Positions 40,583 through 56,301 are shown, numbered from the stretch's first letter. The stretch: DNA of 64,000 nt from Burkholderiales bacterium (GCA_031374415.1 JANMGB010000259.1:5169-69168), one strand, 5' to 3'. A program made the numbers and translations. Notes: a model not told the origin generated them from the sequence alone.

Positions 40583-41449
40583 TCAAATCTCGACGGTTTT
40601 GAGGTACTCGCGGAAACCCGCGCCAAGTTGCGGGTGGGACAGGGCGAGTTCAACGTTGGCCTGCAGGAACCCTTCTTTGCTGCCGCAGTCGTAGCGTTTG
40701 CCTTGATACTGAAAGGCGAAGACCTTTTCTCGGCGCAGCAACCCTGCAATGCCGTCAGTCAGCTGAATTTCACCGCCCACGCCACGCGGTTGGTTGGCAA
40801 TTTCATGGAAAACACCGGGCGTGAGGATGTAGCGGCCTGCGACGCCCAGCCTTGAGGGCGCATCAGCAGGTGCTGGCTTCTCAACGATCCGGCTGACATC
40901 CATCACGCGGTCATTGACAGACTGACCCGCGATGATGCCGTAGCGACGGGTGTGCTCTTCGGGAACTTCCTGGACGGCCAGGATGGACGCACGCCACTCG
41001 GCGTATTGCTCCACCATTTGGGTCAGAACGGGAGGCTGGCCCACCATCAGGTCATCGGCCAGCAGCACGGCAAAGGGCTCGTTGCCAATCAGGCGTTGCG
41101 CACACAACACCGCATGCCCCAAACCCAGCGCCTGGGCCTGGCGAACGTAGACGCATTCCATGTCGTCAGGCTTGACGCTGCGGACCACTTCCAAAAGCTC
41201 ATGCTTGTGTGAGTTTTCCAGCGCGACTTCGAGCTCGAAGGTCATGTCGAAGTGATCTTCAATGGGGCGTTTGTGGCGGCCGGTGACGAAGATCATTTCG
41301 CGCACGCCCGCAGCGTAGGCCTCCTCAACAGCGTATTGAATCAGCGGTTTGTCGACCACTGGGAGCATTTCTTTGGGCTGTGCCTTGGTCGCGGGCAAAA
41401 AACGCGTGCCCAGCCCGGCTACGGGGAAAATCGCTTTATTGATGTGCAT
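40583..41449 (-). CDS. galU: UTP--glucose-1-phosphate uridylyltransferase
   Basis: [34 protein letters not shown]. Start trimmed to the ATG at 41449. Confidence 0.92.
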
Positions 41450-41736
41450 AAACTCTCTCTTTGTGTGCAAAAAATTCGGGTTACTGAGTAAACCAATGAA
41501 TTGATGAAAATGATGGGCGCTGCGCCCCGCTGTGCCACCAGGTCGCCAAGGAGCGATGCCCCTGGGAGCTGAAGCGGGCGTCCGACATGCGCTGCATTTG
41601 CTGCAAATCCCGGCGGCAATCTGTCCGCCACTGGAGCCCGAGACCCGGCGTGAGTTTAGCCGGCATGCTTACACAAACTCAGTGAAATGTGTCCCAAGAT
41701 GTTTGCACGCAAGGTTCGAGCCACCCACGCGATGGA

Positions 41737-42423
41737 TCATGAATGCAGCCATGCCAGCGCCGCTGTCCACGTGGCACCGAGCGGCAAACTGTGAACGCTC
41801 ACAGGCACCCGACTGCCATCCGGCAGGTGCAGCTCAGGTGCCGACAATGCCGGGCCTGAACCGACGTCGATGGTCTCTAGGGGCAATTTCAAGCCCCACC
41901 CCACCGCCTTGATGCAGGCTTCTTTGCGCGCCCATGTTTGATGAAAGGCGAGCTGGCGTTCGAGGGGAGGCAGGCCGTACCATGCCTGCTGCTCAAGTGG
42001 TGTGAAGTGCCGCTGAACAAGTCCTTCGGCATCGCGCAGCTCACGCACTTGTTCGATGTCAACCCCGACTTGCCCGTGCATTGACACCGCAATCAGCGCG
42101 GCAGTACCACTGTGGCTGAGGTTGAAATGACAGCCTGGTGCGTCGGGCAAATAGGGCTTGCCATGAGGCCCGCTAGCGAAGCTCAGCGCCTCGGGCGTGG
42201 TGTGTAGCTTGTCGGCCAACAGCTGGCGCAAAGCCACATGTGAAGCAACAAACCGTTGACGGTGAGACTCTCGATAAAACCGCTGGGCGCGCCCGCGCTC
42301 AGTGTCCGAGAGGACGCCTGGACGGGCCAGCTCAGAATGGCTCAGGTCTGCTTGCCAAACTTCACCCAAGGGCCAGACGTGAACACACACAAGCATCTCA
42401 GTGAGGGAGCCCATGTTGAACAA
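41737..42423 (-). CDS. Sfp-type 4'-phosphopantetheinyl transferase
   Basis: Blocks GKPYL, FNLSHSG, GVDIE and WARKEACIKAVG. Start is ambiguous: 42423, 42414, or 42396 (the last lies 1 nt after the upstream stop). Confidence 0.85.
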   Translation of the reverse strand: MFNMGSLTEMLVCVHVWPLGEVWQADLSHSELARPGVLSDTERGRAQRFYRESHRQRFVASHVALRQLLADKLHTTPEALSFASGPHGKPYLPDAPGCHFNLSHSGTAALIAVSMHGQVGVDIEQVRELRDAEGLVQRHFTPLEQQAWYGLPPLERQLAFHQTWARKEACIKAVGWGLKLPLETIDVGSGPALSAPELHLPDGSRVPVSVHSLPLGATWTAALAWLHS

Positions 42424-43525
42424 GGAAGTCGCAAATTTCGGCCTGATCGTCGACCGACAAATCGGGATAGATCGGCAGGCAAATCACCTGGGACGCCACT
42501 TCGGTGGCCACGGGCAGGTTGGTCGGACTGGACGACGCCAAGCCTGCGTAGTTTGGGAAGGTGGAGATCAAGGGGTAGAAGTATCGGCGTGAATAGATGC
42601 CTTGCACTTTCAAGGCGTCGTAGATCTCATCGCGGGTCAGCCCGTAGCTGGGTTTGACCAGCATGGGGAAGTAAGCGTAGTTCCAGCCAGACAGTTGGGG
42701 TGAGCCCATGCATTGCAAGCCGACAACGCCTTGCAGCGCCTGCCGATATCGGGTGTCGACCTCGCGCCGAGCGGCGATGGCGCGGTCAACGTGTTGAAGC
42801 TGCAGGAGGCCAAACGCGGCATTGATCTCGCTCATTTTGCCGTTGATGCCTGCAATGTCGACGGTGACTTCGTCCAGGATGCCGAAGTTCTTGAGCTCGT
42901 CAATGCGCCGTTTGGACTTGGCGTCGTGAGAGACGATGGCCCCACCCTCAAAGGTGTTGAAAACCTTGGTCGCATGGAAGCTCATGATGGACAGGTCACC
43001 ATGATTGAGCACACTGCCGCAGTGGCATTTGACGCCAAAGGCATGCGCCGCGTCATAGATCACTTTGAGGCCATGCCGCCTTGCGATGTCTTCGATGGCA
43101 TCGACATCGCACGGCGTCCCGTAGCAGTGCACGGGCATGATGGCCGAGGTTCGGGGCGTGATGGCCGCTTCAATCTTGGCCGGGTCGAGGTTGAGGCTGA
43201 CGGGGTGGATGTCGACAAACACGGGCTCAATACCATTCCAGACCAAAGAATGCGACGTTGCCACAAATGAAAACGGCGTGGTGATCACCTCACCTCGGAT
43301 GCCCAAGGATTGCAAGGCCGTGATCAAGGCAATGGTGCCGTTGGTGAACAGGGAAATGTGCTTGACCCCGAGATAGTCACACAGGGCAGCCTCGAGTTCG
43401 TGGTGAAAGGGGCCTTCGTTGGTGAGGATTTTGCTGTCCCAAATTCGTTCCAGGTAAGGAATGAATTCTTGCAGCGGCGGCAGCGCCGGACGCGTGACGT
43501 AAATGGGCTTGTTGGACTTTGTCAT
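42398..43525 (-). CDS. DegT/DnrJ/EryC1/StrS-family PLP-dependent (sugar) aminotransferase
   Basis: Fold-type I sugar aminotransferase pattern (YVTRPALPPL..., AIMPVHCYG, PLP-Lys in SFHATKVF). Confidence 0.88.
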   Translation of the reverse strand: MTKSNKPIYVTRPALPPLQEFIPYLERIWDSKILTNEGPFHHELEAALCDYLGVKHISLFTNGTIALITALQSLGIRGEVITTPFSFVATSHSLVWNGIEPVFVDIHPVSLNLDPAKIEAAITPRTSAIMPVHCYGTPCDVDAIEDIARRHGLKVIYDAAHAFGVKCHCGSVLNHGDLSIMSFHATKVFNTFEGGAIVSHDAKSKRRIDELKNFGILDEVTVDIAGINGKMSEINAAFGLLQLQHVDRAIAARREVDTRYRQALQGVVGLQCMGSPQLSGWNYAYFPMLVKPSYGLTRDEIYDALKVQGIYSRRYFYPLISTFPNYAGLASSSPTNLPVATEVASQVICLPIYPDLSVDDQAEICDFLVQHGLPH

Positions 43526-43545
43526 TTTAGGGGGACGTTAGAGCG

Positions 43546-44556
43546 TTAGGGTCGATGATTGACAGAGGTGGGGACCACCCCCACCTCAATGCGCGACCGC
43601 CACAACGCTGATTGCCTGAAGAAGTCTGGCAAGTGCCGGGGGGGATCGGTATCCGGCTTGCGCTGCAACACCCGCCGCATGCGCCAAAGTGAAAAAGCGA
43701 CCATCCAAAAGATGTCCGTCAACGCAGCGTACAAACGGCCGTGATTTTTGACAAAGTAGCGGCGACGTGACTCAAACCAATAAGCTGGCAGGCGCTTCGG
43801 ACGGTCCGTCTTGTTGGTGACCCCCGTGCTTTGCCCTGCGATGTGCATGACACGACTTTGGGGAACGTACCAGCAATCCCATCCGGCTTGTTTGGCCTGC
43901 AGGCAGAAATCGGTCTCTTCAAAATACAGAAAATAGGACTCGTCCATCAAGCCAATAGCCTGGAAGACTTCGCGTCGAATCATCATGCTCGCGCCGGGGA
44001 GCCAATCAACCCGCTCGGGCGTTGAGCTCATCTGGCGCGCGAGAACATGCTTGGACAATAACTTGCTCACCACACCCAGACGCAAGCCGCTGTCAAACTC
44101 ACTCCAGAGGCTGGGGAAGCGAAAGGTCCAGGGCCACAGCGCACCGTGCTCGTCTTCCAAGCTGCTGCCAGTGATGCCGACCTGGGGGTGCTGTGCCATG
44201 AAATCGGTGAGGGCACCCAGGGCACCAGGGCGTACCAAGGTGTCTGGGTTGACCAGCCAATAAAAATCGGCTGGATGAGCAGAATAAAAGGAGGGTCGAA
44301 TGGCGACGTTGTTGCCATATGAGAAGCCCCCGTTGAGATCGGAGCGACTGAGTCGCACCCAATCCCCCCAGCCCGACTGGCGGATGTGCTCGGCAATCAA
44401 GTCGGCAGAGCCGTCTCCTGAGGCGTTGTCAACGACCACCACTTGCGTGCCAGGGTTGGCTTGTACCTCGCCTTGAAGCGAAGACAGGCAGTTCACGACC
44501 AAAGCGCCGCTTCGGTAGTTGACAATGATGATCAGTGTGGTCGGGGTGCTGCTCAC
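43546..44556 (-). CDS. family 2 glycosyltransferase (WbbL/rhamnosyltransferase-like)
   Basis: IIIVNYRSG...VVVVDNASGDGS, and YFLYFEETDFCLQAKQAGW. Starts 9 nt after the PKS stop. Confidence 0.85.
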   Translation of the reverse strand: MSSTPTTLIIIVNYRSGALVVNCLSSLQGEVQANPGTQVVVVDNASGDGSADLIAEHIRQSGWGDWVRLSRSDLNGGFSYGNNVAIRPSFYSAHPADFYWLVNPDTLVRPGALGALTDFMAQHPQVGITGSSLEDEHGALWPWTFRFPSLWSEFDSGLRLGVVSKLLSKHVLARQMSSTPERVDWLPGASMMIRREVFQAIGLMDESYFLYFEETDFCLQAKQAGWDCWYVPQSRVMHIAGQSTGVTNKTDRPKRLPAYWFESRRRYFVKNHGRLYAALTDIFWMVAFSLWRMRRVLQRKPDTDPPRHLPDFFRQSALWRSRIEVGVVPTSVNHRP

Positions 44557-44565
44557 GCGTACTCC

Positions 44566-47500
44566 TTAGGCCTTGCGGCTCGCATCTTGGGCCACAGCGG
44601 GTGGTGTCATTGCCTGAGAAGATGCCTTTTTCAGGGCGACATCGAGATGGCGTTGCATGCGGTCGGCCAAGACGCGGACATGGGGCTCTTGCAACATGGT
44701 TGAGTGACCGCCAGGGATGTCTTCGGCTGACACGGGTGTGGCGACGCGGCCCTGCCACCCGAGGAGGGGGTCAACGAATTTTTCGATGTAAGGGGCATCG
44801 GCCAGGGTGCCATCGCCCTTCATGGCGCGAAAGACCACCACGTCTGCGCGGCGCAAGATACCCTGAGGCACGTGCTCTTTGTGGGCGTGCTCGTAGACTT
44901 GCAGGTAGGTGATGTCGGGCGCCGGCATTTGGTCGTCGGCCCCGCCACCGGAGTGCTGGCGCAACTGCTGCACAACACGGGCATTGCGCGAGTCTTGCAA
45001 GCGTTTGGAGATTTCGTATTGGATCAGGTTGCGGCCCTTGCGCAGCACCATCGGAACAACCTTGACCCAACGACTCCACAGGGGCTCACCCTTGTCTTCG
45101 GAGACGGTATCTAGAAAACGGTGCAGCCGCGCTGAAGCGGTGCGAAATGGGCGCTCTTTGGCTTGTACATCGCCCGCATCGATGATGCCCACAAACTGTG
45201 TGGTCTCGCCGGCGTCGTCCAGTTGACGGGCCATTTCAAAGGCGATAACGCCCCCTGCGCACAAGCCGGTGAGGAAGTAGGGTCCATGGGCCTGCACCTG
45301 GCGGATCTGGGCCACATGGGCCGCGGCCATGGCGGAGATGGTGGTGTGCACCACCTTGCCGTCGGTGCGAATTTCGGGCTGCAACCCGTACACCGCTTGT
45401 TCGTGCCGCAGCGCAAGCGCCAAGGTGCGATACAACAAGGTTTCGCCGTTGCCGTCGTGCACGAAGAACAGCGGAGCGTGGGGCGTGCCTCCCGCGGGTG
45501 CCGGGCGAATGGTGATCAGTGTTTTACTCAGCACAGTGCGGGGCTTCGGTGACGCGCCCTCGACGGTGGTCGCCGCTTGGCCGGGTTCGGGCTTGGGCTC
45601 GATCAGGGCAGCCAGCGTTTCAACGGTGGGGGCTTCCAGCAGGGCGGTCAAGGGGAGCACCTTGCCGGTACGCTTTTTGAGTTTATTGATGACTTGCAAG
45701 GCGAGCAAGGAATGCCCACCCAGGTCAAAGAAGTTGGCCGAGGCGCTCACCCTCGCCACCCCCAGCATGTCGCCCCACATGTCGGCAATGAGGATTTCGG
45801 TGGCCGTGGTGGGGGCCACCCAATGGGGGTCATCAACGGGTGCAGCAGTGTCCTGCGATCGGGGCACAGCCGAAGGCAGTGGCGCCAAAACGGCCCTGAG
45901 GTCTTGGGCAGACACCACAACTTGGGGCCCCGCGCCTGCGGACAAAATGCGGTGCAGGGCTTGGATACCTTCAGCCGTGAGGATGCCTTGGGTCAGACCG
46001 AGCGCCAAGAGCTCGTTGGCCACCGCCTTGGGCTTTGACGTCACCGGGTGCGCGGGATGGCTGGGCGCCCCCGTGCTGCCGGCCAGGAGTGCTTTGTCAC
46101 GCACACGGATCATCAAAAATTCTTCGATGTCGACCAGCACGCGACCTTGCTCGTCCATGACGGAGATGTCGTAGGCCGCCAGATCACCGTTGGAGCCGTT
46201 GTCGCCTTTGTAGCGGATGTGGCTGAGGATGTGCGGTGGCAAGTCGGCCAGAATGCGCACGCGCCCGTAGGAGGCTGGCACGAAGAAATCAGTGCCCTCG
46301 TCAAAGCCCGGGATCAGCGCTTGGGCGCCCGCAGTGGCCATGTCCATCATGGCAGGGTGAAGCTTGAATTGAGTCAAATCAGCCTCGAAAGCGCTGGGCA
46401 AGCTCAAACGCGCCAGAGCCTCTTGGTGGCCAAAATCAATGCGACGCAGATTGCTCCAGCGGGGACCAAAGTCGAGGTGCAGGGGTTTTTCCGTGCCGTC
46501 GAAGACTTGCGCACGCGCGCGGCAACGCTCGGCTATCTGGGCCAGGGGAGCCAGCGCGACCACGCCGGGATCGACGTAACTGACTTCGCCCCGAACGTTC
46601 TCGACCCAGGCCCGGTCTTCAGGAACACCCGGCTGATGCCCCATGACCGTGAAGTGCTGTCCCTCGCTGCTGCGACGGAATTGCACGCGCAGTTCTTTGT
46701 CTTCTCCTTTGTGCACGACAAAGGGGGACAAGAAGGTGACGTCGCGCAGTTCAATGACCTGGGGGCCGGGTGCAGGGTGGTGCGCAAAGGCGGCACGCAC
46801 GAGTTCGAGGTAGCCGGTGCCGGGAATCAAGGCCTCGCCGCCTTTGATCCGGTGCTCATCGAGCAACCAATGGGTGGCAATGCTGAAGTGGCTGCTGTAC
46901 TCGCGCTCGTCGGGCGCGTCTTTGATGCACTCGGCGACCAGCGGATGCCCAACATGTGCCGAGGCGGGGGCGACCCAGCCCAGTTGCTGCGCCAGAGCCG
47001 CGGCCATACCAACCTCTTGCCATTGGCTCCAGTTGACGGCCACGGTGTGGGTACCGTCGCGGGTCATGCGGTCTTGGGCGTAGGCATCGAGGAAAGCGTT
47101 GGCGCTGGCGTAGTCGACCTGCCCCGCCAAACCGGCAAACGAGCTGATCGATGAAAACAGCACCATAAAGTCCAGCGGCGCATCTGCCTGCACAGCCTGG
47201 AAGGCGGCTTCGAGTACCACCGTGCCTTGAACCTTAGGCGCCCACACCGCTGACACGGTGGCATCGTCTTTGAGTTGGATCACGCCGTCGTTGAGCACAC
47301 CAGCGGTGTGGAACACCCCCTGCAGTGCGCCAAAACGCGCACGTGCTTGCTTGAGCAGGGTCTTCATGGCGTTGAGGTTCGTCACGTCGGCGGCGACCAC
47401 CATCACCTCGGCTCCGTGCGCTTCCAGGGCCATGATTTGGCGGATGCGTTTGGCGGTGGCGTTATGGGGATCGGTGCTTTGCAAGCAAGTGACCCAGTCT

Positions 47501-50500
47501 TTGCGCTCCGGCAAGGGGCTGCGGCCAACCAAAATCAGCTTGGCTTTGAGGGTGCTGGCGAGGTGCTCGGCCAAGGCCAAGCCCACACCGCCCAAGCCAC
47601 CCGTGATGAGGTAAACGCCCCCCGCGCGCAAGCCCGCTTGAATGGAGGGCGCGGCCAATGGGCTCGGGGCATAGCTTTGAACCCAGCGCGCCATGCCGCG
47701 GTAGGCCACCACATCTTCTTCTGCCGGGGCATGACACTCGTTAAGCAAGCACTCGATCAGTTGCCGCTCACGCACCGAGCCCTCGGGAGGTAAAAGGACG
47801 TCCACACTGTGGCAACGGATATTTGTGAACTCACGGGGGATGACCTTGCAAGGCCCCAGCACAGTGGCCTTGGCGGGCTGCAAGTGGGTTTCGCCGGCCA
47901 CGCGTTGCAGGTGATCCGTCACAACGCACCAATGCATGGGTTCACTGAGATCTTCATGGCCCACGGCTTGCGCCAAATGGAGCAAGCTGTCGAACCCTAA
48001 GCGGCGCAGCTCGTCGATGCCCCGCAGACCGGGGTCGATGGGCTTGTTGCCAGTGAGTGTCCAGAGGTGATACACGGTCTGGGGCGCATGACCTTCGGTG
48101 CTGAGGGTAGCGACGAGTCTGTCGTAGTGGTCTGGCTGGGCTGGATTGAGGGTGAACTCATCGCCTTTGCGCAGGTAGGTTTTGCCCGCGCGGACCACGC
48201 TGACATGGGCGCCGCCTTGACGCAGACGTTGAATAAGGCGCGTGCTCAGAGGGCTGTCGTCCGCCAGCACGCAGGTCGACGGCGTCGGCGCGTCTCCATC
48301 GGCAGCGGCGGGCTCCGCCGGTGTGACCACGGAGGGCAGCTCACGCTGCTGCCAGATCGGTTGGTAGAACCAATCGGCCAAATCACTGCGCTTGTCGAGG
48401 GTGGGCTCAGGGGCCAGGGTCAGGCTTTGACCCGGCTCAACCCAGTGGCGTTGGTGATCGAAGCAGTAGGTGGGAAGGGGCACGCGCAAGCGCTTTTCCT
48501 GGCCCCGCACGAGATCCCAGTCAACCGGTGCCCCCACGGCCCACAGGCGACCCAATACGCCGAGCACGAAGGCTTGGTCAGCCACGTCTTCATCAGGGTG
48601 GCGCAAGGAGTTGAGGACAGGCTGATCCGCCGCACGCGCCGGATGCTGCCGCGATAACGAAGCGAGAGTGCGGCCTGGGCCGACTTCCAGCAGCACGCGG
48701 CTTTTGTCTTCCAGCAGCACTTGCAGGCCATCGGCAAAGCGCACAGTGCGACGCAGGTGTTGCACCCAATATTGGGGATCGGTGGCTTGCTGTGCCGTCA
48801 TCCAGGTGCCGGTGACGTTGGAGATGATCGGCAGGGTGGGTGGCTTCATGGCGATGCGTTGGAAGAACGCACCGAACTCTTGAAGAATGGGCTCCAGCAT
48901 GCTGGAGTGCGCGGCCACGGAAATGCGCACGCGGGCAGCATCGATTTCTTGGCCAGCGAGTTGCTGCTGCAAGGCGTCGATGGCGGCCACCGGGCCAGAG
49001 GCCACCGACAGCTGCGGGCCGTTGAGCGCAGCGATGGACAACTCGGGGCCCATGAGAGCGAGTAGCTCGGCCTCGGGCAAGGGCACGCTGAGCATGCCGC
49101 CCTCGGGCAGGGTTTCAAACAGGCGCCCGCGCAAAGCCACCAGCCGCAACGCGTCCTCCAGACTGAACACGCCGGCGAGGTGAGCTGCCGTGTATTCGCC
49201 CATGCTGTGGCCGATCATGGCAGTGGGCTGCAGGCCCCAGGACATCCAGAGTTTGGCTTGGGCGTATTGGACGGTCAGCAAGCATGGCAAGGCCATGGAG
49301 GGGCGCTCAAGCAGCTGGGCGGCCGCTTTTTCTTGGCCGGCAGGCGGAAACAGCAGGCTCTTGAAGTCAGCCTGTTCGTGCCGCGCCAGCAAGGCCAGAC
49401 ATTCGTCGACCGCGTGGCGAAAGACTGACTCGCTGGCGTACAGGCCGGCGCCCATGGTGGGGTATTGAGCCCCCCCACCAGCGAACATAAAGGCCACAGT
49501 GCGCCCCCCGTCGGGTGCTGTTTCGGTGATGAGGCGTTTGGGGTCAGGGTGGGCCAGCGCATTGGCGGCATCTTGAACCGAGCTGCTGACAAGCACGCGC
49601 CGGCGGGTCATGGACTCGCGACCGACTTGCAGGGTGTAGGCCGCATCGGCCAACGACGTGTCGGGATACTCAGTGAAATGGGTGGCCAAAGCAGCCGTGT
49701 TGGCATCCAGCGCCGTGGCCGTCTTGGCCGACAGCAACAGAACCTGGTGCTCACGTGAGGGGCCGCTGCGCTCGCGCGCTGGGGCTTCTTCCAGAACGAT
49801 GTGCGCGTTGGTGCCACCGACACCCAGTGAGCTGACGCCAGCGCGGCGGGGCTGGCCGGATGGCGGTGTCCAGGGCTTGAGGCTGGCGTTGACGTAAAAC
49901 GGGCTGCGCTCAAACTCACACGCCGGGTTGGGTGATTTGAAGTGCAGCGAGGCAGGCAACTCGCGGTGTTGCATGGCCAGGGCCACTTTGATGAAACTGG
50001 CCACCCCGGCCGCGGTGTCGGTGTGACCGATGTTGCTTTTCACAGAGCCCACGCCACAGAAGCCTTTGGCATCGGTGCCTTGGCGGAAGGCTTGACTCAG
50101 CGCAGCGATTTCAATGGGGTCGCCCACTGGCGTACCCGTACCATGGGTTTCAACGTAAGAGATGGTCTCGGGCGACACGTTGGCCAGGGCCAGGGCCTCG
50201 GCGATGGCCTGAGCTTGACCATCGACGCTGGGTGCCAGGTAGCCCATCTTGCCCGAACCATCGTTGTTGATGGCAGACCCTTTGATGACCGCGTGAATAT
50301 GGTCACCGTCGTTGATGGCATCAGCCAACCGGCGCAAAACGACCACGCCGACTGCGCTGCCAAAGACAGTGCCTTTGGAGTCGGCATCGAAGGCATGGCA
50401 GTGACCATCGGGAGAGAGAATTTCACCCTCGTGATAGACGTAGCCATGGCGGTGGGGCAACTCGATGGTGACACCACCGGCCAGCACCATGTCGCACTCC

Positions 50501-51117
50501 CGGTTCAGCAGGCTTTGCACACCCGTGTGGATGGCCACAAGCGAGGTCGAGCAGGCCGTCTGAACGTTGACACTGGGGCCCTTGAGATTGAGCAGGTAGG
50601 ACACCCGTGTGGTCAGAAAGTCTTTGTCATTGCCCGTGTGGCGCACCAAGAAAAAACCAACGGCCTGCATCAGCTTGGGGTTGGTGAGCAGGTTGTAGGG
50701 CATGTAGGCGTTGTGGCCTGAGCCACCGAAGACGCCGATGGCGCCCGCAAAGCGACTGGGCACGTGGCCCGCGTTCTCCAGGGCCTCCCAAGCACACTCG
50801 AGGAAGTGTCGGTGCTGGGGGTCCATGATGGCAGCCTCACGGGGGCTGAAACCAAAGAAGGGGGCGTCGAACATCTCCATGTCAGGCAGTACCGCACCGC
50901 GCTTGACGTAGTTGGGGTTGCTCAGCAGTGTCGGACTGACCCCTGCGGCCAGCAACTCGTCATCAGTGAAGGTGGTCAGCGACTCTACGCCCTCACGCAG
51001 GTTGTGCCAGTACTGCGCAATGTTGCGCGCCCCTGGGAAACGCCCCGCCATGCCCACCACGGCGATGTCGGTGTCAAAGGTGTCACTGGTGTAGGCGTCG
51101 CTCATATCAAATCTCAT
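44566..51117 (-). CDS. type I polyketide synthase, KS-AT-KR-DH-T-TE (2183 aa)
   Basis: KS (TACSTSLVAIH, HGTGT, GHTDTAAG); AT (GHSMGEY); KR (GGLGGVGLALAEHL, YASANAF); PS-DH-like (LDEHRIKGGEALIPG); carrier (FFDLGGHSLL); TE (FFVHDGNGE, GLCAGG, GGH). Alternative start is the ATG at 51105. Confidence 0.93.
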   Translation of the reverse strand: MRFDMSDAYTSDTFDTDIAVVGMAGRFPGARNIAQYWHNLREGVESLTTFTDDELLAAGVSPTLLSNPNYVKRGAVLPDMEMFDAPFFGFSPREAAIMDPQHRHFLECAWEALENAGHVPSRFAGAIGVFGGSGHNAYMPYNLLTNPKLMQAVGFFLVRHTGNDKDFLTTRVSYLLNLKGPSVNVQTACSTSLVAIHTGVQSLLNRECDMVLAGGVTIELPHRHGYVYHEGEILSPDGHCHAFDADSKGTVFGSAVGVVVLRRLADAINDGDHIHAVIKGSAINNDGSGKMGYLAPSVDGQAQAIAEALALANVSPETISYVETHGTGTPVGDPIEIAALSQAFRQGTDAKGFCGVGSVKSNIGHTDTAAGVASFIKVALAMQHRELPASLHFKSPNPACEFERSPFYVNASLKPWTPPSGQPRRAGVSSLGVGGTNAHIVLEEAPARERSGPSREHQVLLLSAKTATALDANTAALATHFTEYPDTSLADAAYTLQVGRESMTRRRVLVSSSVQDAANALAHPDPKRLITETAPDGGRTVAFMFAGGGAQYPTMGAGLYASESVFRHAVDECLALLARHEQADFKSLLFPPAGQEKAAAQLLERPSMALPCLLTVQYAQAKLWMSWGLQPTAMIGHSMGEYTAAHLAGVFSLEDALRLVALRGRLFETLPEGGMLSVPLPEAELLALMGPELSIAALNGPQLSVASGPVAAIDALQQQLAGQEIDAARVRISVAAHSSMLEPILQEFGAFFQRIAMKPPTLPIISNVTGTWMTAQQATDPQYWVQHLRRTVRFADGLQVLLEDKSRVLLEVGPGRTLASLSRQHPARAADQPVLNSLRHPDEDVADQAFVLGVLGRLWAVGAPVDWDLVRGQEKRLRVPLPTYCFDHQRHWVEPGQSLTLAPEPTLDKRSDLADWFYQPIWQQRELPSVVTPAEPAAADGDAPTPSTCVLADDSPLSTRLIQRLRQGGAHVSVVRAGKTYLRKGDEFTLNPAQPDHYDRLVATLSTEGHAPQTVYHLWTLTGNKPIDPGLRGIDELRRLGFDSLLHLAQAVGHEDLSEPMHWCVVTDHLQRVAGETHLQPAKATVLGPCKVIPREFTNIRCHSVDVLLPPEGSVRERQLIECLLNECHAPAEEDVVAYRGMARWVQSYAPSPLAAPSIQAGLRAGGVYLITGGLGGVGLALAEHLASTLKAKLILVGRSPLPERKDWVTCLQSTDPHNATAKRIRQIMALEAHGAEVMVVAADVTNLNAMKTLLKQARARFGALQGVFHTAGVLNDGVIQLKDDATVSAVWAPKVQGTVVLEAAFQAVQADAPLDFMVLFSSISSFAGLAGQVDYASANAFLDAYAQDRMTRDGTHTVAVNWSQWQEVGMAAALAQQLGWVAPASAHVGHPLVAECIKDAPDEREYSSHFSIATHWLLDEHRIKGGEALIPGTGYLELVRAAFAHHPAPGPQVIELRDVTFLSPFVVHKGEDKELRVQFRRSSEGQHFTVMGHQPGVPEDRAWVENVRGEVSYVDPGVVALAPLAQIAERCRARAQVFDGTEKPLHLDFGPRWSNLRRIDFGHQEALARLSLPSAFEADLTQFKLHPAMMDMATAGAQALIPGFDEGTDFFVPASYGRVRILADLPPHILSHIRYKGDNGSNGDLAAYDISVMDEQGRVLVDIEEFLMIRVRDKALLAGSTGAPSHPAHPVTSKPKAVANELLALGLTQGILTAEGIQALHRILSAGAGPQVVVSAQDLRAVLAPLPSAVPRSQDTAAPVDDPHWVAPTTATEILIADMWGDMLGVARVSASANFFDLGGHSLLALQVINKLKKRTGKVLPLTALLEAPTVETLAALIEPKPEPGQAATTVEGASPKPRTVLSKTLITIRPAPAGGTPHAPLFFVHDGNGETLLYRTLALALRHEQAVYGLQPEIRTDGKVVHTTISAMAAAHVAQIRQVQAHGPYFLTGLCAGGVIAFEMARQLDDAGETTQFVGIIDAGDVQAKERPFRTASARLHRFLDTVSEDKGEPLWSRWVKVVPMVLRKGRNLIQYEISKRLQDSRNARVVQQLRQHSGGGADDQMPAPDITYLQVYEHAHKEHVPQGILRRADVVVFRAMKGDGTLADAPYIEKFVDPLLGWQGRVATPVSAEDIPGGHSTMLQEPHVRVLADRMQRHLDVALKKASSQAMTPPAVAQDASRKA
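44668..45486 (-). other. PKS thioesterase domain with Cys at the nucleophile position (approx.)
   Basis: aa ~1878-2150. GPYFLTGLCAGGVIAFEMA has the Cys1953 codon at 45259-45261. C-terminal GGHSTM. Confidence 0.8.
45598..45825 (-). other. PKS carrier (T/ACP) domain with PCP-like GGHSL motif (approx.)
   Basis: aa ~1765-1840. FFDLGGHSLLALQV with Ser1803. Confidence 0.8.
46093..46956 (-). other. PKS dehydratase (PS-DH, hot-dog) domain located after the KR (approx.)
   Basis: aa ~1388-1675. HPLVAECI...HWLLDEHRIKGGEALIPGTGYLEL resembles the LxxHxxxGxxxxP block. Confidence 0.65.
47083..47625 (-). other. PKS ketoreductase catalytic subdomain (approx.)
   Basis: aa ~1165-1345. NADPH site TGGLGGVG; catalytic Tyr context VDYASANAF. 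Confidence 0.8.
48538..49500 (-). other. PKS acyltransferase domain (approx.)
   Basis: aa ~540-860. GHSMGEY has Ser637. The downstream motif reads VAAHSSM rather than HAFH or YASH. Confidence 0.8.
49783..51072 (-). other. PKS ketosynthase domain (approx.)
   Basis: aa ~16-445. Active Cys at aa 189 in TACSTS; His motifs HGTGT and NIGHT. Confidence 0.85.
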
Positions 51118-51248
51118 TCCACGGGCGCTTTATGCGCCCGTTTCCAAACTGTCATACAAACCAAAACTCGCGAGCACGGTGCTCGCCAACATGCGCCTCG
51201 CGCGGCAAAGCACGGTCACCTGATCATCGGTGCCCTGCTTTTCGCAGC

Positions 51249-54200
51249 TCATCCCCGCGGCCCAGCTGAAGGCCGAACTTGGCGCCGTTGAAGCGCAGCC
51301 CGGCGGCCCTCAGCGCGGTCTTTGCCTTGCTGTGCAGCCGCCCCATCACCGCCCTCCTGGGACAGGTAAGCGCTCAAGCTTTGGATGGTCGGGAAGCGGA
51401 AAATGTCGGTGATCGACAAGTCACGCTGTAACACGTCACGCAACTTGCGATGTACCTGAACCGCCAACAAAGAGTGCCCGCCAAGATCGAAGAAATTGTC
51501 ACGCGTGCCCACTTGAGGCAGGTTGAGAACTTCCTTCCAAACGGTGGCAATTTGCTGCTCGGTGTCACCCGCTGGCGGCACGTAGGCCTCGGCCACCGGG
51601 GCTTGGGCGCCATCCGGTGCCGGCAGGGCCTTGCGGTCCACCTTGCCGTTGGGTGTTTGAGGCAAGGCCGACAGGGTCACGAAGTGTGAAGGCACCATGT
51701 AGTCGGGCAAGCGGTCCCGGAGGTGCTCTTTGAGCTCAGTCACGGTCGGTGATTGCTGCCCGGCCACCACGAAGTAGGCCACGAGCCGCAAGTCACCCGG
51801 AATGTCTTCACGCGCCACCACCACGGTTTCACGCACCGCCAGGTGATGGAGCAAGGCGGCTTCGATCTCGCCAAGTTCGATGCGGTAGCCACGCACTTTG
51901 ACCTGGTGATCCAGGCGGCCCAGGAACTCGACCGTACCGTCCGGCCTGAACATGGCCAGGTCACCGGTGCGGTACACACGCCCCCCTGTGGCGCCTCGAA
52001 CGGGGTGCGCGATGAAGCGCTCCGCGGTCAGCTCGGGTCGGTGCAGGTAGCCGCGAACGACACCACGCCCGCCGATGATCAACTCGCCTGGCACACCCAC
52101 TGGCACCGGTTGTTGGCGGGTGTCGAGGACGTAGAGCTCTTGGTTCACCAAGGGACGCCCGAGCGGCACAATGCCGTCAATACGCTCGACTCGGTGCACA
52201 GCCGACCAGATGGTGGTCTCGGTCGGGCCGTACATGTTCATGACCTCGCCCTGGCTGAGCAGGCTCTTGAGCTCCTGGGCCAATGAGGGCGGAAAGGCCT
52301 CGCCACCGATCATCATGCGTTTGAGCTGCGACAGGCCCTGCTTGGCCTTGTCATCAAGCAGAAGCATGCGGGCCATCGAGGGGGTGCATTGCAAATGCGT
52401 CACCCCGTGGCGCTGCATCAGGGCAGGCAGGGCATGGTCGGCGCTGGCCGAACGGCGCGGGGTCGCGATTTTGCGCAACTCGTTCAGATCGGTGAGGTGA
52501 GTCATGACCGTGGCGGAATCAATGCCAAAGTCGATCAGGCAGGCAATGTCGTCAACGCCGATGGCCTTGAGCTTGTCGATCATGACCAGGCAAGCCTCGG
52601 GCGTGCCGAACAGGCCACTGGTCTCGTAGTAGCGATTGAACGAGTGCTCAAGCAGGCCCGTCATCTCGTCGTCACTCAGGCTTTGCAGGTCAACGCCCGC
52701 GGCCGAGGTGTCCATGCCGTCGCGCTTCTTAAAGGCAGGGAACGACCAGGCGTATTGCTTGATGAGGCTGACTGAGCTGCGCAGGTACTCGATGAGCGGC
52801 AAGCGCACCTTCTCGCGCACATCGGCTTCATCCGACCCCACCAGCGTGTGCAGCATCAGGGACACATAGCCCTCACCGGGGTGCCCAGAGTCCTTCCACG
52901 CCTGGCGGTAGGCGGCGAGTTTGCCGGTGAGCTCGTCCACGCTTTGACCCAGCAAGTGGGTCAGGACAAAGGCACCCAGGCGACCCGCCGCGGCGAAGGT
53001 TTCCGGGTTACCGGCTGAGGTCACCCAGATCGGCAACTCTTTTTGCACCGGGCGCGGCAAGATGCTGATGTCGACCATCTCACCCGTCGCGCCAGGAAAA
53101 CCGACCTTCTCACCACGCCACAGTTTGCGCACGACGTCGATGTCGCGCAGCATGACTTGCTTGTTGGTGGCGAAATTTTCTGGGCGCAGCACAAAGTCGT
53201 TGGGCTGCCAGCCCGACGCAAACGAGATGCCCACGCGACCGCGAGAGATGTTGTCAACCACCGACCAGTCTTCAGCCACACGGATGGGGTGGTGCAAGGG
53301 CAGCACGACGCTGCCGGCGCGGATTTGAATGCGCTCGGTCACCGCCGCAATGGCCGCACTGGTGACTGCCGGGTTGGGATACAAACCACCGAAGGCATGG
53401 AAGTGCCGCTCCGGCGTCCAGATGGCTGCAAAGCCGTGCTGGTCGCCATAACGCGCGCCGTCGAGCAACAGCTTGTATTTGTTGTCGTTGTTTTCAGACT
53501 CATCGCTCGAAAAGTAGAACAAGCTGAAATCAATCGGGCGTGCCGCATGAGGCCCACGAGCCGGCGTGGCCGCAGAGCGGTCTTCGTTGGTGGCAATCAC
53601 CACCTTGTAGCCACGGGCGAGCGTCCAGCACAGCTCGAGCACGGAAATGTCGAAGCTCAAACTCGTGACCGCCAACCAAACGCCTGCAGGGTCTTGGCCC
53701 AGGTGCTGGTCCATGCCCGCGAAAAAATTGACGGCGTTGCGGTGCTCCACCATCACACCCTTGGGCTTGCCCGTCGAGCCCGAGGTGTAGATGACGTAGG
53801 CCAGGTGCTTGGGCTCGGCGCCGCCATCGAAACGCTCGGCGGATTCTTTGCCGATGCTGTCCCAATCGGCATCCAAGGCAATGACCGTGGCGCGGTGCGG
53901 CGGCAGGTCAGCGCGCAGGCGCTCTTGCGTCAGCAACACAGGCACCTTGGCATCTTCGACCATGTAGGCGATGCGATCTTTGGGATAGCTCGGGTCGAGG
54001 GGCAGATAAGCCCCACCCGCCTTTTGAATGGCCAGCAAGCCGACCATCATCTCAATGGAGCGCTCAGTGCACAGGCCCACCAACACATCCGGCCCCACCC
54101 CCAACGAAGCCAGGCGCCGAGCCAACTGATTGGCGCGGCGATCCAACTCGCTATAGCTGAGAGCCTGGTCTTCACAGACCAGAGCGATGTGCTCCGGGGT

Positions 54201-55943
54201 GCGGGCGACCTGCTCTTCAATCAGACGGTGCACGCAAGCATCCGAGCGCCAAGGGCCTTCGGTGGCATTCCACTGAGTGAGCACCTGGGCTTGCTCAGCA
54301 GCGCCCAGCAACGGCAACTCAGACAAATGACGTTGCGGATCGGCATCGGCGGCGCGAATCAGGGTGGCCCATTGGGACTGCATCTGGGCGACCACCGCGG
54401 CATTGAGCTTGGTGGCATCAAAGCACCAACGGCTTTGCTCACCTTGGCGACTCACGGCAATGGTGAGCTCGCTGCCAGGCAAGGGCTGAGCGGCATCCAG
54501 GCTGTCAACGATGATGACGGCCACGGGCAACACGCGCGGTGAGCCGTTGAGGGCCATGGCGCGAAGTTCGGGCGCCCGGGCGACCAGATCTGTGGCGTAG
54601 GTGACGCGCTTTCTGAGTTGAGTGAGTTCAGCCTGAGCTGCCGCCACGACCGCACCCGCACCTTGCGAAAAATCGAAGCTCATGCGCAAGGGCACTTGCC
54701 TTGCAAACCACCCCTCGACACCCCGAACCGCAGCGCTCAACGTGGCGTCGGAGAAGCCCACATCGAACACATCTTTGTCAGTCAGACGGGCCAGGTAGGC
54801 CAAAGTCAACGCCAGCACCTGATCCGCGCGCTCAGCACCCAGCGCGGGAGTGCCCGGCACAGGGGCATCACTGTGGCTGTAGTTGGCCCCGACCAACGGG
54901 GCACTGCGATCAATGTAGGGCAACTCAAGCAGCGTTTGACTGGCCAGGCGTTGTTGCCAGAAGCCCTCAAAACGAGCCACATCGGCGTTCAGGGTGGTCA
55001 GGCGGTCGGCCAGGGCCGGTGTCAAGGCATCAAACAACAAACCAGTGCGCAGCTGGAAGTGGGCTGCCGCCTCTTGGGCTGTCAAGACCTTGCCGTCCAA
55101 GGTCTCAAAACGCTGGAGCTTGATGTCCTGGCTGCCGGTGGCCACGGTCACGGCTTCGGCATCCACGGTGACCAAGGTGCCGGGCGCAGCACCTGAGGCG
55201 GTGTCCGTGACCGTCACTGCGCCCACCAACAGGGGCTGCCCGCTCCAGCTGGCTTTGGCGCCGCCTATCGGGTTGGCGTAACTGCCAAAATCGAGAGCGC
55301 GAATCAGCGTAGCGATGTGCGATGCATCCAGGGCCCAGTCGATGGCGCACGCGGCAGCGGGCCGGTCTTTTCGGCCGTAGTAGCGCCCGATCGGGGCTGA
55401 CTGAGGTTGCGCCTGCAAGCTGCCTGCCATGAGGCCACGCACGACAGGCTCAAAGCTGTCCATGCCCGCTTCAAAGCACTTGGTGTTGAGCGTGAGGGCC
55501 GTCTCATCAGGGGCCAGACTGACAGCACGTTGAGCAAGGATGGCGCCCTGGTCCACCTGTGCCGTCATCAGGTGCCAAGTGATGCCATGTTCAGCCTCAC
55601 CGTTGAGCATCGCCCAGATGGGGGTGTTCAAACCACCGTACGCTGGCAGGGGACCGTCGTGAAAGTTGATCGCTGCGCGAGTTGGCAGGGCAATGACTTC
55701 GGGGGGCAGTACCGAGAGATTGGTGATGCTGAAAAGATAGTCGAAGGGCCGCAGATCCTGGCTAGAGAGCATGGCCTGTGCGTTGTCCAATACTCGAATA
55801 CCGCGCTCGGCAGCCCAACGTTTGATGGGCTGAGCGCCTGACACGACCGCAACGATGTGGTGGCCTGCTTGCTCAAGAGTTTGAGCACATTGGATCAATA
55901 GGGACTCGGAACCGACCAGAACGCAGCGCCATGAATTAGACAT
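51249..55943 (-). CDS. NRPS: formyltransferase-like domain, condensation C-lobe remnant, adenylation domain interrupted by a luciferase-like monooxygenase, and T domain
   Basis: Fmt-like INFHDGPLPAYGG...VDQGAIL; A cores LAYVIYTSGSTGKPKGV, NMYGPTETT, YRTGDL, GRLDHQVKVRGYRIELGEIE, PNGKVDRKAL; LLM block FSLFYFSS...IWTPERHF...; PCP FFDLGGHSLLAVQV. Start is ATG 55943 or TTG 55958. Confidence 0.9.
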   Translation of the reverse strand: MSNSWRCVLVGSESLLIQCAQTLEQAGHHIVAVVSGAQPIKRWAAERGIRVLDNAQAMLSSQDLRPFDYLFSITNLSVLPPEVIALPTRAAINFHDGPLPAYGGLNTPIWAMLNGEAEHGITWHLMTAQVDQGAILAQRAVSLAPDETALTLNTKCFEAGMDSFEPVVRGLMAGSLQAQPQSAPIGRYYGRKDRPAAACAIDWALDASHIATLIRALDFGSYANPIGGAKASWSGQPLLVGAVTVTDTASGAAPGTLVTVDAEAVTVATGSQDIKLQRFETLDGKVLTAQEAAAHFQLRTGLLFDALTPALADRLTTLNADVARFEGFWQQRLASQTLLELPYIDRSAPLVGANYSHSDAPVPGTPALGAERADQVLALTLAYLARLTDKDVFDVGFSDATLSAAVRGVEGWFARQVPLRMSFDFSQGAGAVVAAAQAELTQLRKRVTYATDLVARAPELRAMALNGSPRVLPVAVIIVDSLDAAQPLPGSELTIAVSRQGEQSRWCFDATKLNAAVVAQMQSQWATLIRAADADPQRHLSELPLLGAAEQAQVLTQWNATEGPWRSDACVHRLIEEQVARTPEHIALVCEDQALSYSELDRRANQLARRLASLGVGPDVLVGLCTERSIEMMVGLLAIQKAGGAYLPLDPSYPKDRIAYMVEDAKVPVLLTQERLRADLPPHRATVIALDADWDSIGKESAERFDGGAEPKHLAYVIYTSGSTGKPKGVMVEHRNAVNFFAGMDQHLGQDPAGVWLAVTSLSFDISVLELCWTLARGYKVVIATNEDRSAATPARGPHAARPIDFSLFYFSSDESENNDNKYKLLLDGARYGDQHGFAAIWTPERHFHAFGGLYPNPAVTSAAIAAVTERIQIRAGSVVLPLHHPIRVAEDWSVVDNISRGRVGISFASGWQPNDFVLRPENFATNKQVMLRDIDVVRKLWRGEKVGFPGATGEMVDISILPRPVQKELPIWVTSAGNPETFAAAGRLGAFVLTHLLGQSVDELTGKLAAYRQAWKDSGHPGEGYVSLMLHTLVGSDEADVREKVRLPLIEYLRSSVSLIKQYAWSFPAFKKRDGMDTSAAGVDLQSLSDDEMTGLLEHSFNRYYETSGLFGTPEACLVMIDKLKAIGVDDIACLIDFGIDSATVMTHLTDLNELRKIATPRRSASADHALPALMQRHGVTHLQCTPSMARMLLLDDKAKQGLSQLKRMMIGGEAFPPSLAQELKSLLSQGEVMNMYGPTETTIWSAVHRVERIDGIVPLGRPLVNQELYVLDTRQQPVPVGVPGELIIGGRGVVRGYLHRPELTAERFIAHPVRGATGGRVYRTGDLAMFRPDGTVEFLGRLDHQVKVRGYRIELGEIEAALLHHLAVRETVVVAREDIPGDLRLVAYFVVAGQQSPTVTELKEHLRDRLPDYMVPSHFVTLSALPQTPNGKVDRKALPAPDGAQAPVAEAYVPPAGDTEQQIATVWKEVLNLPQVGTRDNFFDLGGHSLLAVQVHRKLRDVLQRDLSITDIFRFPTIQSLSAYLSQEGGDGAAAQQGKDRAEGRRAALQRRQVRPSAGPRG
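51354..51575 (-). other. NRPS thiolation (PCP) domain (approx.)
   Basis: aa ~1462-1535. DNFFDLGGHSLLAVQVHRKL. Confidence 0.85.
52464..53546 (-). other. luciferase-like (LLM) flavin monooxygenase domain inserted in the A domain (approx.)
   Basis: aa ~805-1165, lying between the A4 region (SFDISVLE) and the TPS/A5 region (LQCTPSMARMLL, NMYGPTETT). Confidence 0.75.
54279..54836 (-). other. condensation-domain C-terminal-lobe-like remnant (approx.)
   Basis: aa ~375-560. LAYLARLTDKDVFDVGF...GWFARQVPLRMSF resembles the C4/C5 region of C domains. No HHxxxDG is seen anywhere upstream. Confidence 0.45.
55059..55934 (-). other. NRPS N-terminal formyltransferase (Fmt/ArnA-FT)-like domain (approx.)
   Basis: aa ~9-300. 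Asn98/His100 lie in INFHDGPLPAYGG and Asp136 in VDQGAIL, positioned like the Fmt catalytic triad. Confidence 0.7.
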
Positions 55944-56301
55944 AGTTTGTAGTATCAATTTCGGAAAATAGAATTCGACTGTTGATCAAGCTCGCCAATA
56001 AGCGGTCGTGTCAGGAACTGCTGCTTCCACAGTGAGCGTTTGCCCTCACCGTGAGGGCTGACGCAGCTGTATTATCGACCCGCCAATGGGCTTTAGGCGA
56101 GGTCATCTTCCCCTCATTTTGGGGGACAGCGTGCGGTTTGACCGTGCATTTGGCGGATGCGCGCAACCCCAAGTCAGGCGCTAAAAACGCAGTTTCAACG
56201 CACAAAATCCGATTCCTGCACGGATTGTTTGCAGCGAGATAAACCGGATTGCTGTACTCGGGCGTTGCCCAAAAAGCACAGTAGACCAAACTGCTCAAGG
56301 A

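Follow-up and report, generated by a model that had tools for sequence, protein, structure and literature searches.

A hybrid NRPS-PKS locus of a Burkholderiales bacterium as a member of a widespread, polysaccharide-associated gene cassette family

Gene content and integrity of the locus

The window analyzed here, a stretch of 64,000 nucleotides (nt) from a Burkholderiales bacterium (GCA_031374415.1; JANMGB010000259.1:5169-69168), contains on its minus strand five genes that encode a peptide synthetase of the non-ribosomal type (NRPS), a polyketide synthase (PKS), a family 2 glycosyltransferase (GT2), a sugar aminotransferase of the DegT family and a phosphopantetheinyl transferase (PPTase; see Table 1). 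The locus is a real and intact hybrid NRPS-PKS, one copy of a very widespread cassette, and it belongs to a large, uncharacterized, polysaccharide-associated hybrid NRPS-PKS family. The nearly spacerless arrangement described in an earlier note on the same DNA was confirmed by the list of open reading frames (ORFs): the gaps amount to 131 nt (NRPS-PKS), 9 nt (PKS-GT2) and 20 nt (GT2-DegT), followed by a 26-nt overlap of DegT and PPTase from the TTG start or a distance of 1 nt with the ATG at 42396. Likewise, Pfam and NCBIfam recovered every domain named in that note for a hybrid of one amino acid and one ketide module with GT2, sugar aminotransferase and PPTase. In the NRPS, a formylation (F) domain is followed by a remnant of a condensation (C) domain, an adenylation (A) domain with an inserted monooxygenase (MOx) and a carrier domain (T1); the PKS comprises ketosynthase (KS), acyltransferase (AT), pseudo-ketoreductase and ketoreductase (psiKR, KR), dehydratase (DH), a second carrier (T2) and thioesterase (TE).

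Frameshifts or pseudogenization, named in the earlier note as grounds for dismissing the cluster, were not found: the five ORFs at 41737-55958 are uninterrupted and all core motifs are intact (A1-A10, the serines of both carriers, KS Cys-His-His, AT GHSMGE, KR Tyr, DH His/Asp, TE His). The likely start of the NRPS is the ATG at 55943, resulting in a protein of 1564 amino acids (aa) that is identical to the database protein P0001. The five-gene extent given previously was probably too narrow, as a probable sixth gene for an SGNH-fold lipoprotein upstream of the NRPS gene had been overlooked. The flanks consist of ordinary betaproteobacterial housekeeping genes (ilv/leuA, pssA, pyrophosphatase, bioDFAB, TRAP transporter, queG, mutL); in agreement with the earlier statement that a transporter, regulator or MbtH gene is missing nearby, none of these and neither Wzx nor Wzy was seen among the annotated genes of the window and the flanks.

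A scan for promoters and terminators yielded sites no more numerous than in shuffled sequence, and operon boundaries were not defined thereby. The 131-nt spacer between the NRPS and PKS genes contains a perfect 8-bp inverted repeat (ACGGGCGC-ATAAA-GCGCCCGT; 51121-51141, minus strand) that ends 3 nt before the ATG of the PKS gene and occupies the expected position of the ribosome-binding site; it could be an element of translational control or coupling.

Table 1. Genes and protein domains of the locus (positions refer to the window).
Feature	Position	Strand	Extent	Assignment and motifs
NRPS gene	51249-55958	minus	1569 aa	from TTG; six-frame ORF list
F domain	55059-55943	minus	NRPS aa 1-295	Pfam Formyl_trans_N and Formyl_trans_C, two subdomains
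Condensation C-lobe remnant	54219-55058	minus	NRPS aa 296-575	HHxxxDG absent
A domain with inserted MOx	51624-54218	minus	NRPS aa 576-1440	AMP-binding in two stretches, Bac_luciferase, AMP-binding_C
MOx	52473-53528	minus	NRPS aa 806-1157; ~350 aa	flavin mononucleotide (FMN)-dependent luciferase-like monooxygenase
T1 carrier	51363-51557	minus		PP-binding; GGHSL at NRPS aa 1488
PKS gene	44566-51117	minus	2183 aa	
KS	49939-51072	minus		Pfam; TACSTS/HGTGT/NIGHT
AT	48607-49491	minus		Pfam; GHSMGE, VAAHS
psiKR and KR	47014-48267	minus		Pfam; LND motif (LDD-like, B-type-like), catalytic Tyr
DH	46087-46947	minus		Pfam; His/Asp present
T2	45601-45789	minus		peptidyl carrier protein (PCP)-like; GGHSL
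TE	44677-45474	minus		nucleophile motif GLCAGG (Cys); GGHS
GT2 gene	43546-44556	minus	336 aa	
DegT gene	42398-43525	minus	375 aa	
PPTase gene	41737-42423	minus	228 aa	
galU	40583-41470	minus		TIGR01099, 369 bits, above cutoff; neighbor, probably outside the system
SGNH-fold lipoprotein ORF	56302-57495	minus	397 aa	probable sixth gene, upstream of NRPS

Structure of the NRPS protein

The catalytic residues N93, H95 and D131 of the F domain are invariant across the family. Its best relative of solved structure is the formyltransferase domain of ArnA (UDP-Ara4N; 5e-25), followed by Met-tRNA formyltransferase and sugar N-formyltransferases; the F domain of LgrA is remote (4e-6). The adjoining remnant matched the Pfam Condensation profile below threshold (15 bits for the window, 28 bits for P0059), with positions 185-339 of the 456 of the profile covered, and is conserved together with F across the family. 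As it comprises the C-lobe alone and the HHxxxDG motif is absent, the remnant is probably structural. Compared with F-A-T modules of the LgrA type, the catalytic Asn/His/Asp of the F domain are shared, whereas the 280-aa C-lobe insertion and the ArnA-like F domain differ. In the loading modules of conglobatin (CongA) and oxazolomycin (OzmO), F-A(Gly)-PCP passes N-formylglycine to a KS for malonyl extension; the window resembles them in its N-terminal F domain, glycine A domain and carrier feeding a KS. In contrast to these systems, its F and A domains are separated by a C-lobe remnant, the A domain encloses a MOx, and the locus has KR and DH rather than an oxazole-forming cyclodehydratase, one PKS module and a TE plus GT2 ending. 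CongA and OzmO are set apart here by description only; the window F domain is ArnA-like and remote from that of LgrA.

The A domain is interrupted between A4 (FDISVLE, aa 764-770) and A5 (NMYGPTE, aa 1236) by the MOx, which is of the MupA/Atu3671 type (TIGR04020; 522 bits versus a cutoff of 244). The earlier note had correctly read D-I-L from the A4 block as the start of the specificity code; the complete code is DILQMGMIWK (read by eye against GrsA numbering). According to a 2025 survey, the four MOX-bearing A domains that activate glycine all share the code DILQLGMIWK. With nine of ten positions identical to this code and the code-bearing motifs conserved in 58-75 related loci, glycine is strongly predicted to be the substrate. 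The top NCBIfam match of the NRPS, 'SolG', was dismissed, as it reflects generic A-T similarity only and lies far below the cutoff.

In-module monooxygenases are documented in myxothiazol and melithiazol biosynthesis (MtaG/MelG), where glycine is alpha-hydroxylated and the C-N bond subsequently cleaved, and in solanimycin biosynthesis (SolF), where the hydroxylated glycine is retained. The window shares with these a luciferase-like monooxygenase in a glycine A domain and the near-identical code. However, MtaG, MelG and SolF are C-A(MOX)-T(-TE) modules for elongation or termination, with peptidyl- or acyl-glycine as their substrate, whereas the window protein appears as an initiation module that would use a formyl group and feed a PKS; the functional donor C domain of the MtaG type is absent, F replacing the donor side.

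The head consisting of F and C-lobe (570 aa) was also present on proteins of about 1170-1235 aa, a length that fits F-C*-A-T (C*, C-lobe remnant) minus the MOx insertion (deduced from length alone), and on multi-modular proteins, the longest of 4364 aa (representatives P0366-P0511). The head thus seems to represent a formylating initiation module of general occurrence, undescribed so far and different from that of LgrA. In two metagenome-assembled genomes (MAGs) of Solirubrobacterales/Actinomycetota (L059, L079), tblastn placed F-C*-A(MOx)-T apparently directly before a TE, without a PKS; this layout would be a PKS-less version that itself releases or transfers formyl-(hydroxy)glycine.

Structure of the PKS protein

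The specificity motif of the AT corresponds neither to HAFH nor to YASH. Unlike the canonical KS-AT-DH-KR-ACP (acyl carrier protein) arrangement, the domain order is KS-AT-psiKR-KR-DH-T and is kept in all relatives. The closest solved KS-AT structures are of the modular hybrid type (8xju/8xjy, 7zma, CurL), the closest KR domains those of MlnE, PksJ and StsA and the closest DH domains those of GphF and CurF; T-TE is closest to Acinetobacter AB3403, the TE of which likewise has a Cys nucleophile (GWCFGG).

A KR placed before the DH is reminiscent of the iterative synthases of polyunsaturated fatty acids (PUFA) and enediynes. The KS-AT-KR-DH-T-TE protein could therefore be imagined to cycle and to form a polyene or long chain primed by formylglycine, i.e. 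a glycolipid or pigment that is exported by flippases of the Wzx type; the order is indeed atypical for modular PKSs with cis-acting AT and conserved in all family members. The closest solved domains belong, however, to modular hybrid or trans-AT-type systems (CurL, MlnE, PksJ, GphF) and not to PUFA or enediyne synthases, enoylreductase (ER) and product-template features are absent, and the crotonyl-CoA carboxylase/reductase of the Piscinibacter clade is typical of single unusual extender units. An iterative PKS is thus considered highly improbable, and an assignment to the PUFA/enediyne type, as suggested by the KR-DH order, was rejected because the nearest solved KS-AT, KR and DH relatives do not support it.

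The Piscinibacter/Rhizobacter-clade variant of the cassette includes the gene for this carboxylase/reductase (TIGR01751, 577 bits; L001 21272-24536, L085 21227-24500), two paralogous GT2 genes after the PKS gene, a TE of the Ser type and VAGHS as the AT motif; the composition suggests that an unusual alkylmalonyl extender may be used in this clade.

Accessory genes

The GT2 is assigned to Pfam GT2 families and is soluble, a transmembrane (TM) helix being absent. A sequence search of the PDB returned no match; the AlphaFold2 (AF2) model (pLDDT 87) matches only the generic GT-A fold, and family similarity to rhamnosyltransferase and to small-molecule GT2s of the MftF type is weak. DegT belongs to Pfam DegT_DnrJ_EryC1 (1e-102; best NCBIfam match PLP_DesI, below cutoff), and its best solved relatives are C4 aminotransferases of NDP-4-keto-sugars: DesI (2po3), GDP-perosamine synthase and ArnB. 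The PPTase is of the Sfp/HetI type (Pfam ACPS and AASDHPPT_N; NCBIfam HetI-like, 130 bits, below cutoff), and a PPTase gene adjoins the cassette in many relatives.

Since homologs of the formyltransferase domain of ArnA, of the C4 aminotransferase ArnB and of a GT2 co-occur at the locus, F, DegT and GT2 might make and transfer a 4-formamido sugar in the manner of ArnA/ArnB/ArnC, with the product of A-T and PKS being a separate compound. The best solved relative of F and the sugar N-formyltransferases, which also outscore the F domain of LgrA, are in line with this explanation, as is the relationship of DegT to ArnB, DesI and perosamine synthase. Yet hundreds of genomes encode F as a cis fusion with an A-T initiation module, and in most of these no DegT gene lies alongside. 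In addition, the decarboxylase domain of ArnA, the deformylase ArnD, ArnT and the flippase ArnE/F are absent from the annotated genes of the window and the GT2 is devoid of the membrane anchors of ArnC; the locus is thus no member of the Arn systems, and an Arn-like function is hardly credible.

The SGNH-fold ORF has neither a Pfam nor an NCBIfam match. Its product carries an N-terminal lipoprotein-like signal with a lipobox-like motif (LCAC), and the top Foldseek matches of the AF2 model (pLDDT 92) are the DUF4886 protein 4i8i (E 2e-8), CE2 esterases, the periplasmic SGNH domain of OafB, a lipopolysaccharide (LPS) O-acetyltransferase, and PatB. The motif SGHS (59-62; S59/S62), D268 and H271 are nearly invariant, corresponding to a block-I Ser and a block-V Asp-x-x-His. 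Given the fold match without a sequence-profile match, the protein is considered a divergent member of the SGNH/GDSL superfamily, and as modeled it resembles glycan O-acyl esterases or transferases. A homolog adjoins the cassette in at least eight of the loci inspected (L004, L006, L084, L031, L015, L021, L042, L171) and not in L170.

Occurrence and conserved neighborhood of the cassette

More than 100 full-length relatives of the NRPS have the identical architecture (55-86% identity), mainly in Burkholderiales (Piscinibacter, Rhizobacter, Methylibium, Caldimonas) and Sphingomonadales; the closest among the matches are from Burkholderiales MAGs. Carriers of the cassette that can be grown in culture include Piscinibacter gummiphilus, Caldimonas manganoxidans ATCC BAA-369, Novosphingobium sp. 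BL-8A and BL-52 and Sphingobium sp. Leaf26. When a single genome of each species was searched with the F-plus-C-lobe head as query, the head was detected in at least 574 species genomes of more than ten phyla (Proteobacteria, Planctomycetota, Chloroflexi, Myxococcota, Verrucomicrobia, Acidobacteria, Gemmatimonadota; further Bacteroidota/Ignavibacteria, Actinomycetota and Spirochaetes). Metagenomes contributed at least 525 matches to the N-terminal NRPS region, and 1462 clusters (50% identity) matched the head at E<=1e-30 when 1.84 billion representatives were searched without a profile. The family, found in hundreds of species of many phyla, is thus no rare oddity. A PKS of the order KS-AT-KR-DH-T-TE adjoins the NRPS in about 50 of 80 genome loci across phyla; with the order of the two kept, the arrangement lies far outside what chance would produce.

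For the GT2 gene, an orthologue within 700 nt after the TE was present in 22 of the 48 assessable genome loci, all of them proteobacterial; among the metagenome loci, which a Ser-type TE probe had recovered, the proportion was 38 of 69, and many metagenome loci are ordered PKS-GT2-NRPS. A Wzx flippase is encoded near the cassette in 12 genome loci and 17 metagenome loci, and Wzy, Wzz-like, Wza/Wzc-like and ParA/BY-kinase-like proteins, GT4, GT2 and AT3-SGNH acyltransferases are other recurrent neighbors. The transporter missing from the window is, in the relatives, plausibly the Wzx flippase. As these polysaccharide genes stand beside the relatives and not in the window, the glycan link is supported for the family rather than shown for this genome.

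The sugar aminotransferase, listed in the earlier note as part of the cluster, is restricted to the window's own clade: no DegT of more than 35% identity was present in 160 other surveyed loci, and a 374-aa gene that follows the GT2 genes of the Piscinibacter clade is not a DegT, so that DegT was rejected as a general partner. In L084 (85% identity) the gene order is GT4 - SGNH - NRPS - PKS - GT2 - DegT - PPTase - GT4. The galU gene follows the five-gene block after 266 nt, virtually the distance reported before (about 265 nt); its supposed role in UDP-glucose supply was not borne out, since no convincing copy was found beside the cassette in the 160 surveyed loci and galU is not a conserved partner, the link thus being probably coincidental.

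The thioesterase-glycosyltransferase pair

The nucleophile of the TE is a Cys (GLCAGG) in the window clade, Methylibium, Caldimonas and all Sphingomonadales, and a Ser (GFSGGG and similar) in Piscinibacter, Planctomycetes, Chloroflexi and Myxococcota. Cyanobacterial homologs of the GT2, 57-65% identical to that of the window, are located directly after different carrier-TE(Cys) proteins: one partner is an NRPS of the order A-T-C-A-T-TE, two are FkbH-T-TE(Cys) proteins of about 1020-1050 aa (FkbH domain at 311-315 bits). The T-TE(Cys) region of the window shares 35-39% identity over about 400 aa, the Cys included, with the cyanobacterial T-TE; the values are 26-30% for its TE compared with the Ser-type TEs of its own NRPS-PKS family and 36-54% for the GT2s of the latter. 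The identities across systems hence exceed those to the Ser-type members of the family, which indicates that TE(Cys) and GT2 move jointly from one unrelated assembly line to another. One cyanobacterial GT2 locus has no TE, and a WcaB/EpsC-like polysaccharide acetyltransferase is encoded upstream of the GT2. From the joint travel of TE and GT2 and from this substitution we infer that the TE may be an acyltransferase that works with the GT2 on a sugar.

In a wider sense, TE(Cys) and GT2 might represent a portable offloading pair that couples diverse assembly lines (FkbH-glyceryl, dipeptidyl and formyl-hydroxyglycine-ketide) to Wzx/Wzy surface glycans in many phyla and that installs, in the present case, an electrophilic acyl group, either an N-formyl hemiaminal or an enoyl; this generalization is regarded as possible, albeit rather doubtful. 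If it is true, a previously unrecognized class of "assembly-line-decorated" bacterial glycans would exist.

The FkbH-T-TE loci (L167 6784-11041, L168 6899-11032) have the GT2 gene directly after the assembly-line gene (GT2 59-62% identical to that of the window), in L168 beside Wza- and Wzc-like genes; their composition suggests that carrier-bound glyceryl units may be handled by the same TE and GT2 pair.

Comparison with characterized systems

Carrier-bound acyl or aminoacyl groups are passed to a sugar or an envelope polymer by the TE of Pks13, which performs the mycolyl transfer to trehalose, and by the Dlt and AlmEFG systems; glycine is the amino acid activated by AlmE, and the extracytoplasmic fold of DltD is SGNH-like. 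With the transfer of an acyl group to a sugar as proposed below, these systems have only the concept in common: unlike Dlt and AlmEFG, the window encodes neither an MBOAT protein (DltB) nor an AlmG-type transferase, and the acyl group would be built by a full NRPS-PKS. The similarity of the window TE to that of Pks13 is detectable, though no higher than to other TEs, with AB3403 as the best. In the case of mycolic acids, export as trehalose monomycolate follows the Pks13 condensation step. A precedent for an assembly line coupled to the Wzy pathway is carenaemin, the production of which by the cpl PKS/NRPS of Collimonas arenae requires an oligosaccharide locus of the Wzx/Wzy kind that includes a WcaB-like acetyltransferase; this system differs by its assembly line for three amino acids, its two separate loci and its diffusible product. 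Both carenaemin and myxoglucamide were rejected as matches, as their clusters are different from that of the window.

Full-text searches of the literature yielded no description of the architecture or the cassette and no characterized member, and the earlier statement that the pathway is not recognizable as a known one still stands, as no characterized pathway was found that matches. The parts are known (formylating loading modules, MOX-interrupted glycine A domains, hybrid KS); their combination was not found described.

Proposed function and alternative explanations

Elsewhere the cassette is usually located within cell-surface polysaccharide clusters, which makes the decoration of a surface polymer likelier than a free antibiotic-like molecule; in particular, the recurrent Wzx, Wzy, Wzz and Wza-Wzc neighbors and additional glycosyltransferases favor a glycan-linked product over the free small lactone or acid predicted in the earlier note. 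It is therefore tentatively proposed, with a confidence slightly short of even, that a sugar of a surface glycan receives a C4 enoyl unit derived from N-formyl-(hydroxy)glycine, which is thus attached rather than released.

According to this model, the PPTase would prime both carrier domains, and the A domain would load glycine on T1, as predicted from its specificity code. The position of the ArnA-like F domain and its intact N/H/D triad are consistent with N-formylation of Gly-S-T1. The embedded FMN monooxygenase might then introduce a hydroxyl group at the alpha-carbon of glycine, a reaction also proposed for SolF, MtaG and MelG, and the resulting carbinolamide would either be kept or collapse to formamide and glyoxylyl-S-T. 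KS and AT would add one C2 unit (a single, non-iterative round with malonyl-CoA being assumed), followed by reduction by the B-type-like KR and dehydration by the DH, so that the T2 thioester would be 4-formamido-(4-hydroxy)but-2-enoyl or, if the formamide is lost, 4-oxobut-2-enoyl. The Cys-TE would take over the acyl group and, as an acyltransferase, pass it to the sugar handled by the co-evolving GT2; in the lineage of the window, this sugar is possibly an NDP-4-amino-4,6-dideoxyhexose provided by the DesI-like aminotransferase. The GT2 would build the acylated sugar into the glycan, export would proceed by machinery encoded elsewhere in the genome, and the periplasmic SGNH lipoprotein may trim or re-position the acyl group.

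The structure of the acyl group might also be simpler: F and MOx could serve only to turn Gly-S-T into glyoxylyl-S-T, from which the PKS would make a reactive 4-oxobut-2-enoyl (fumaraldehydyl) chain, an explanation that concerns the acyl structure and fits either mode of offloading. It is in accordance with MtaG and MelG, which hydroxylate N-acyl-glycine with C-N cleavage leaving an alpha-keto acyl thioester, with the 2025 survey, in which MOX is described as cleaving the carbon backbone of glycine moieties, and with the strict co-conservation of F and MOx in the protein class of about 1560 aa. However, SolF demonstrates that the retention of hydroxyglycine is possible, and F-plus-C-lobe heads also occur on proteins of about 1200 aa, too short for a MOx (a conclusion from length), which argues for a role of F independent of MOx; moreover, the route would be a costly one to a C2 aldehyde starter. 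A mere glyoxylyl starter is thus considered improbable.

With regard to offloading, the free product envisaged in the earlier note would result if the GT2 glycosylated a hydroxyl of the acyl chain, e.g. the hemiaminal hydroxyl installed by MOx, either carrier-bound or after release, and if the TE hydrolyzed or cyclized the chain to a soluble glycoside derived from an N-formyl amino acid, a butenolide or a pyrrolinone. In favor of this, the compact cassette includes a PPTase of its own, and no polysaccharide genes accompany it in the window; all GT2-partnered lines could bear a hydroxylated acyl group (glyceryl in the FkbH lines, hydroxyglycine here), and the weak GT2 similarity to rhamnosyltransferase and MftF-type enzymes points in the same direction. 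Cys-type TEs are, besides, known in ring-forming release. On the other hand, the GT2 is 57-65% identical between systems with completely different acyl groups, so that its substrates probably exclude the acyl chain. The Wzx/Wzy/Wzz/Wza-Wzc neighbors recur, an exporter is absent from the window, and the B-type-like KR together with the DH would predict a trans double bond that disfavors closure of a five-membered ring. Release as a free glycoside is therefore regarded as unlikely, and attachment of the acyl unit to a surface glycan is retained as the preferred explanation.

Several observations nevertheless weigh against attachment to a glycan in the proposed form. Each chemical step is inferred and no product has been observed. 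In the window the cassette is located among housekeeping genes, and Wzx, Wzy, an initiating transferase and genes for chain-length control or export are absent. The adjacency of the GT2 gene applies to only about half of the loci and to none of the Chloroflexi or Myxococcus genome loci, neither the acceptor of the TE nor the substrates of the GT2 are deducible, and the fold match of the GT2 is generic. Given that DegT is lineage-specific, a mechanism based on the N-acylation of amino sugars cannot apply in general. The assumption that the SGNH protein is exclusive to the cassette had to be rejected, since one homolog is located between ftsH and folP. Finally, the non-canonical VAAHS motif leaves the extender unit of the AT uncertain (malonyl-CoA was taken as default), the KR-before-DH order is unusual, and iteration retains a low probability.

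Non-carbohydrate substituents govern the charge, immunogenicity, recognition by phages and antibodies and the material properties of surface polysaccharides, and the enzymes behind the more exotic acyl groups of glycans are for the most part unknown. If the proposed function is true, NRPS-PKS chemistry (formylation, alpha-hydroxylation, ketide extension) would join the repertoire of glycan decoration, and an explanation would be available for an orphan "NRPS-T1PKS" hit that is among the most frequent in environmental Proteobacteria, Planctomycetes, Chloroflexi and Myxococcota; a mining rule (TE plus GT2 pair, Wzx context) would then separate envelope-modifying assembly lines from drug-like clusters. 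Orphan clusters are common; distinctive in the present case are how broadly the family occurs, how consistently it is found in a glycan context, and the portable pair of TE(Cys) and GT2. Even in the case of a small, free glycoside as product, the ArnA-like F domain, C-lobe remnant, glycine/MOx domain, KR-before-DH order and Cys-TE would constitute a compact, testable system for in-module formylglycine hydroxylation.

Further genes in the window

Directly upstream of the cluster, a four-gene block (57492-63985, minus strand) encodes a 169-aa ORF, an Hsp70-like protein of 832 aa (N-terminal half with Pfam matches to HSP70 and MreB_Mbl, long C-terminal half without assignment), a 562-aa proline-rich protein with PAPAPAPA and PTPTPT runs, and a 564-aa protein, the N-terminus of which is J-domain-like by eye ("SNPFSVLGVTPLDD"). 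Only the Hsp70-like protein has a Pfam match, and both proteins of about 560 aa are kept in the closest relative L004. The block may represent a non-canonical Hsp70/J-protein system.

At 19076-24595 (minus strand), a cytochrome P450 gene (414 aa; sub-threshold family matches only) is located immediately downstream of bioB-bioA-bioF-bioD on the same strand, a position recalling the pimelate-forming P450 of the BioI type, here inside a proteobacterial biotin operon. On the plus strand, the region 17059-19104 encodes a 681-aa protein with the signature of a fused MFS/spermidine-synthase-like protein (NF037959, 52 bits).

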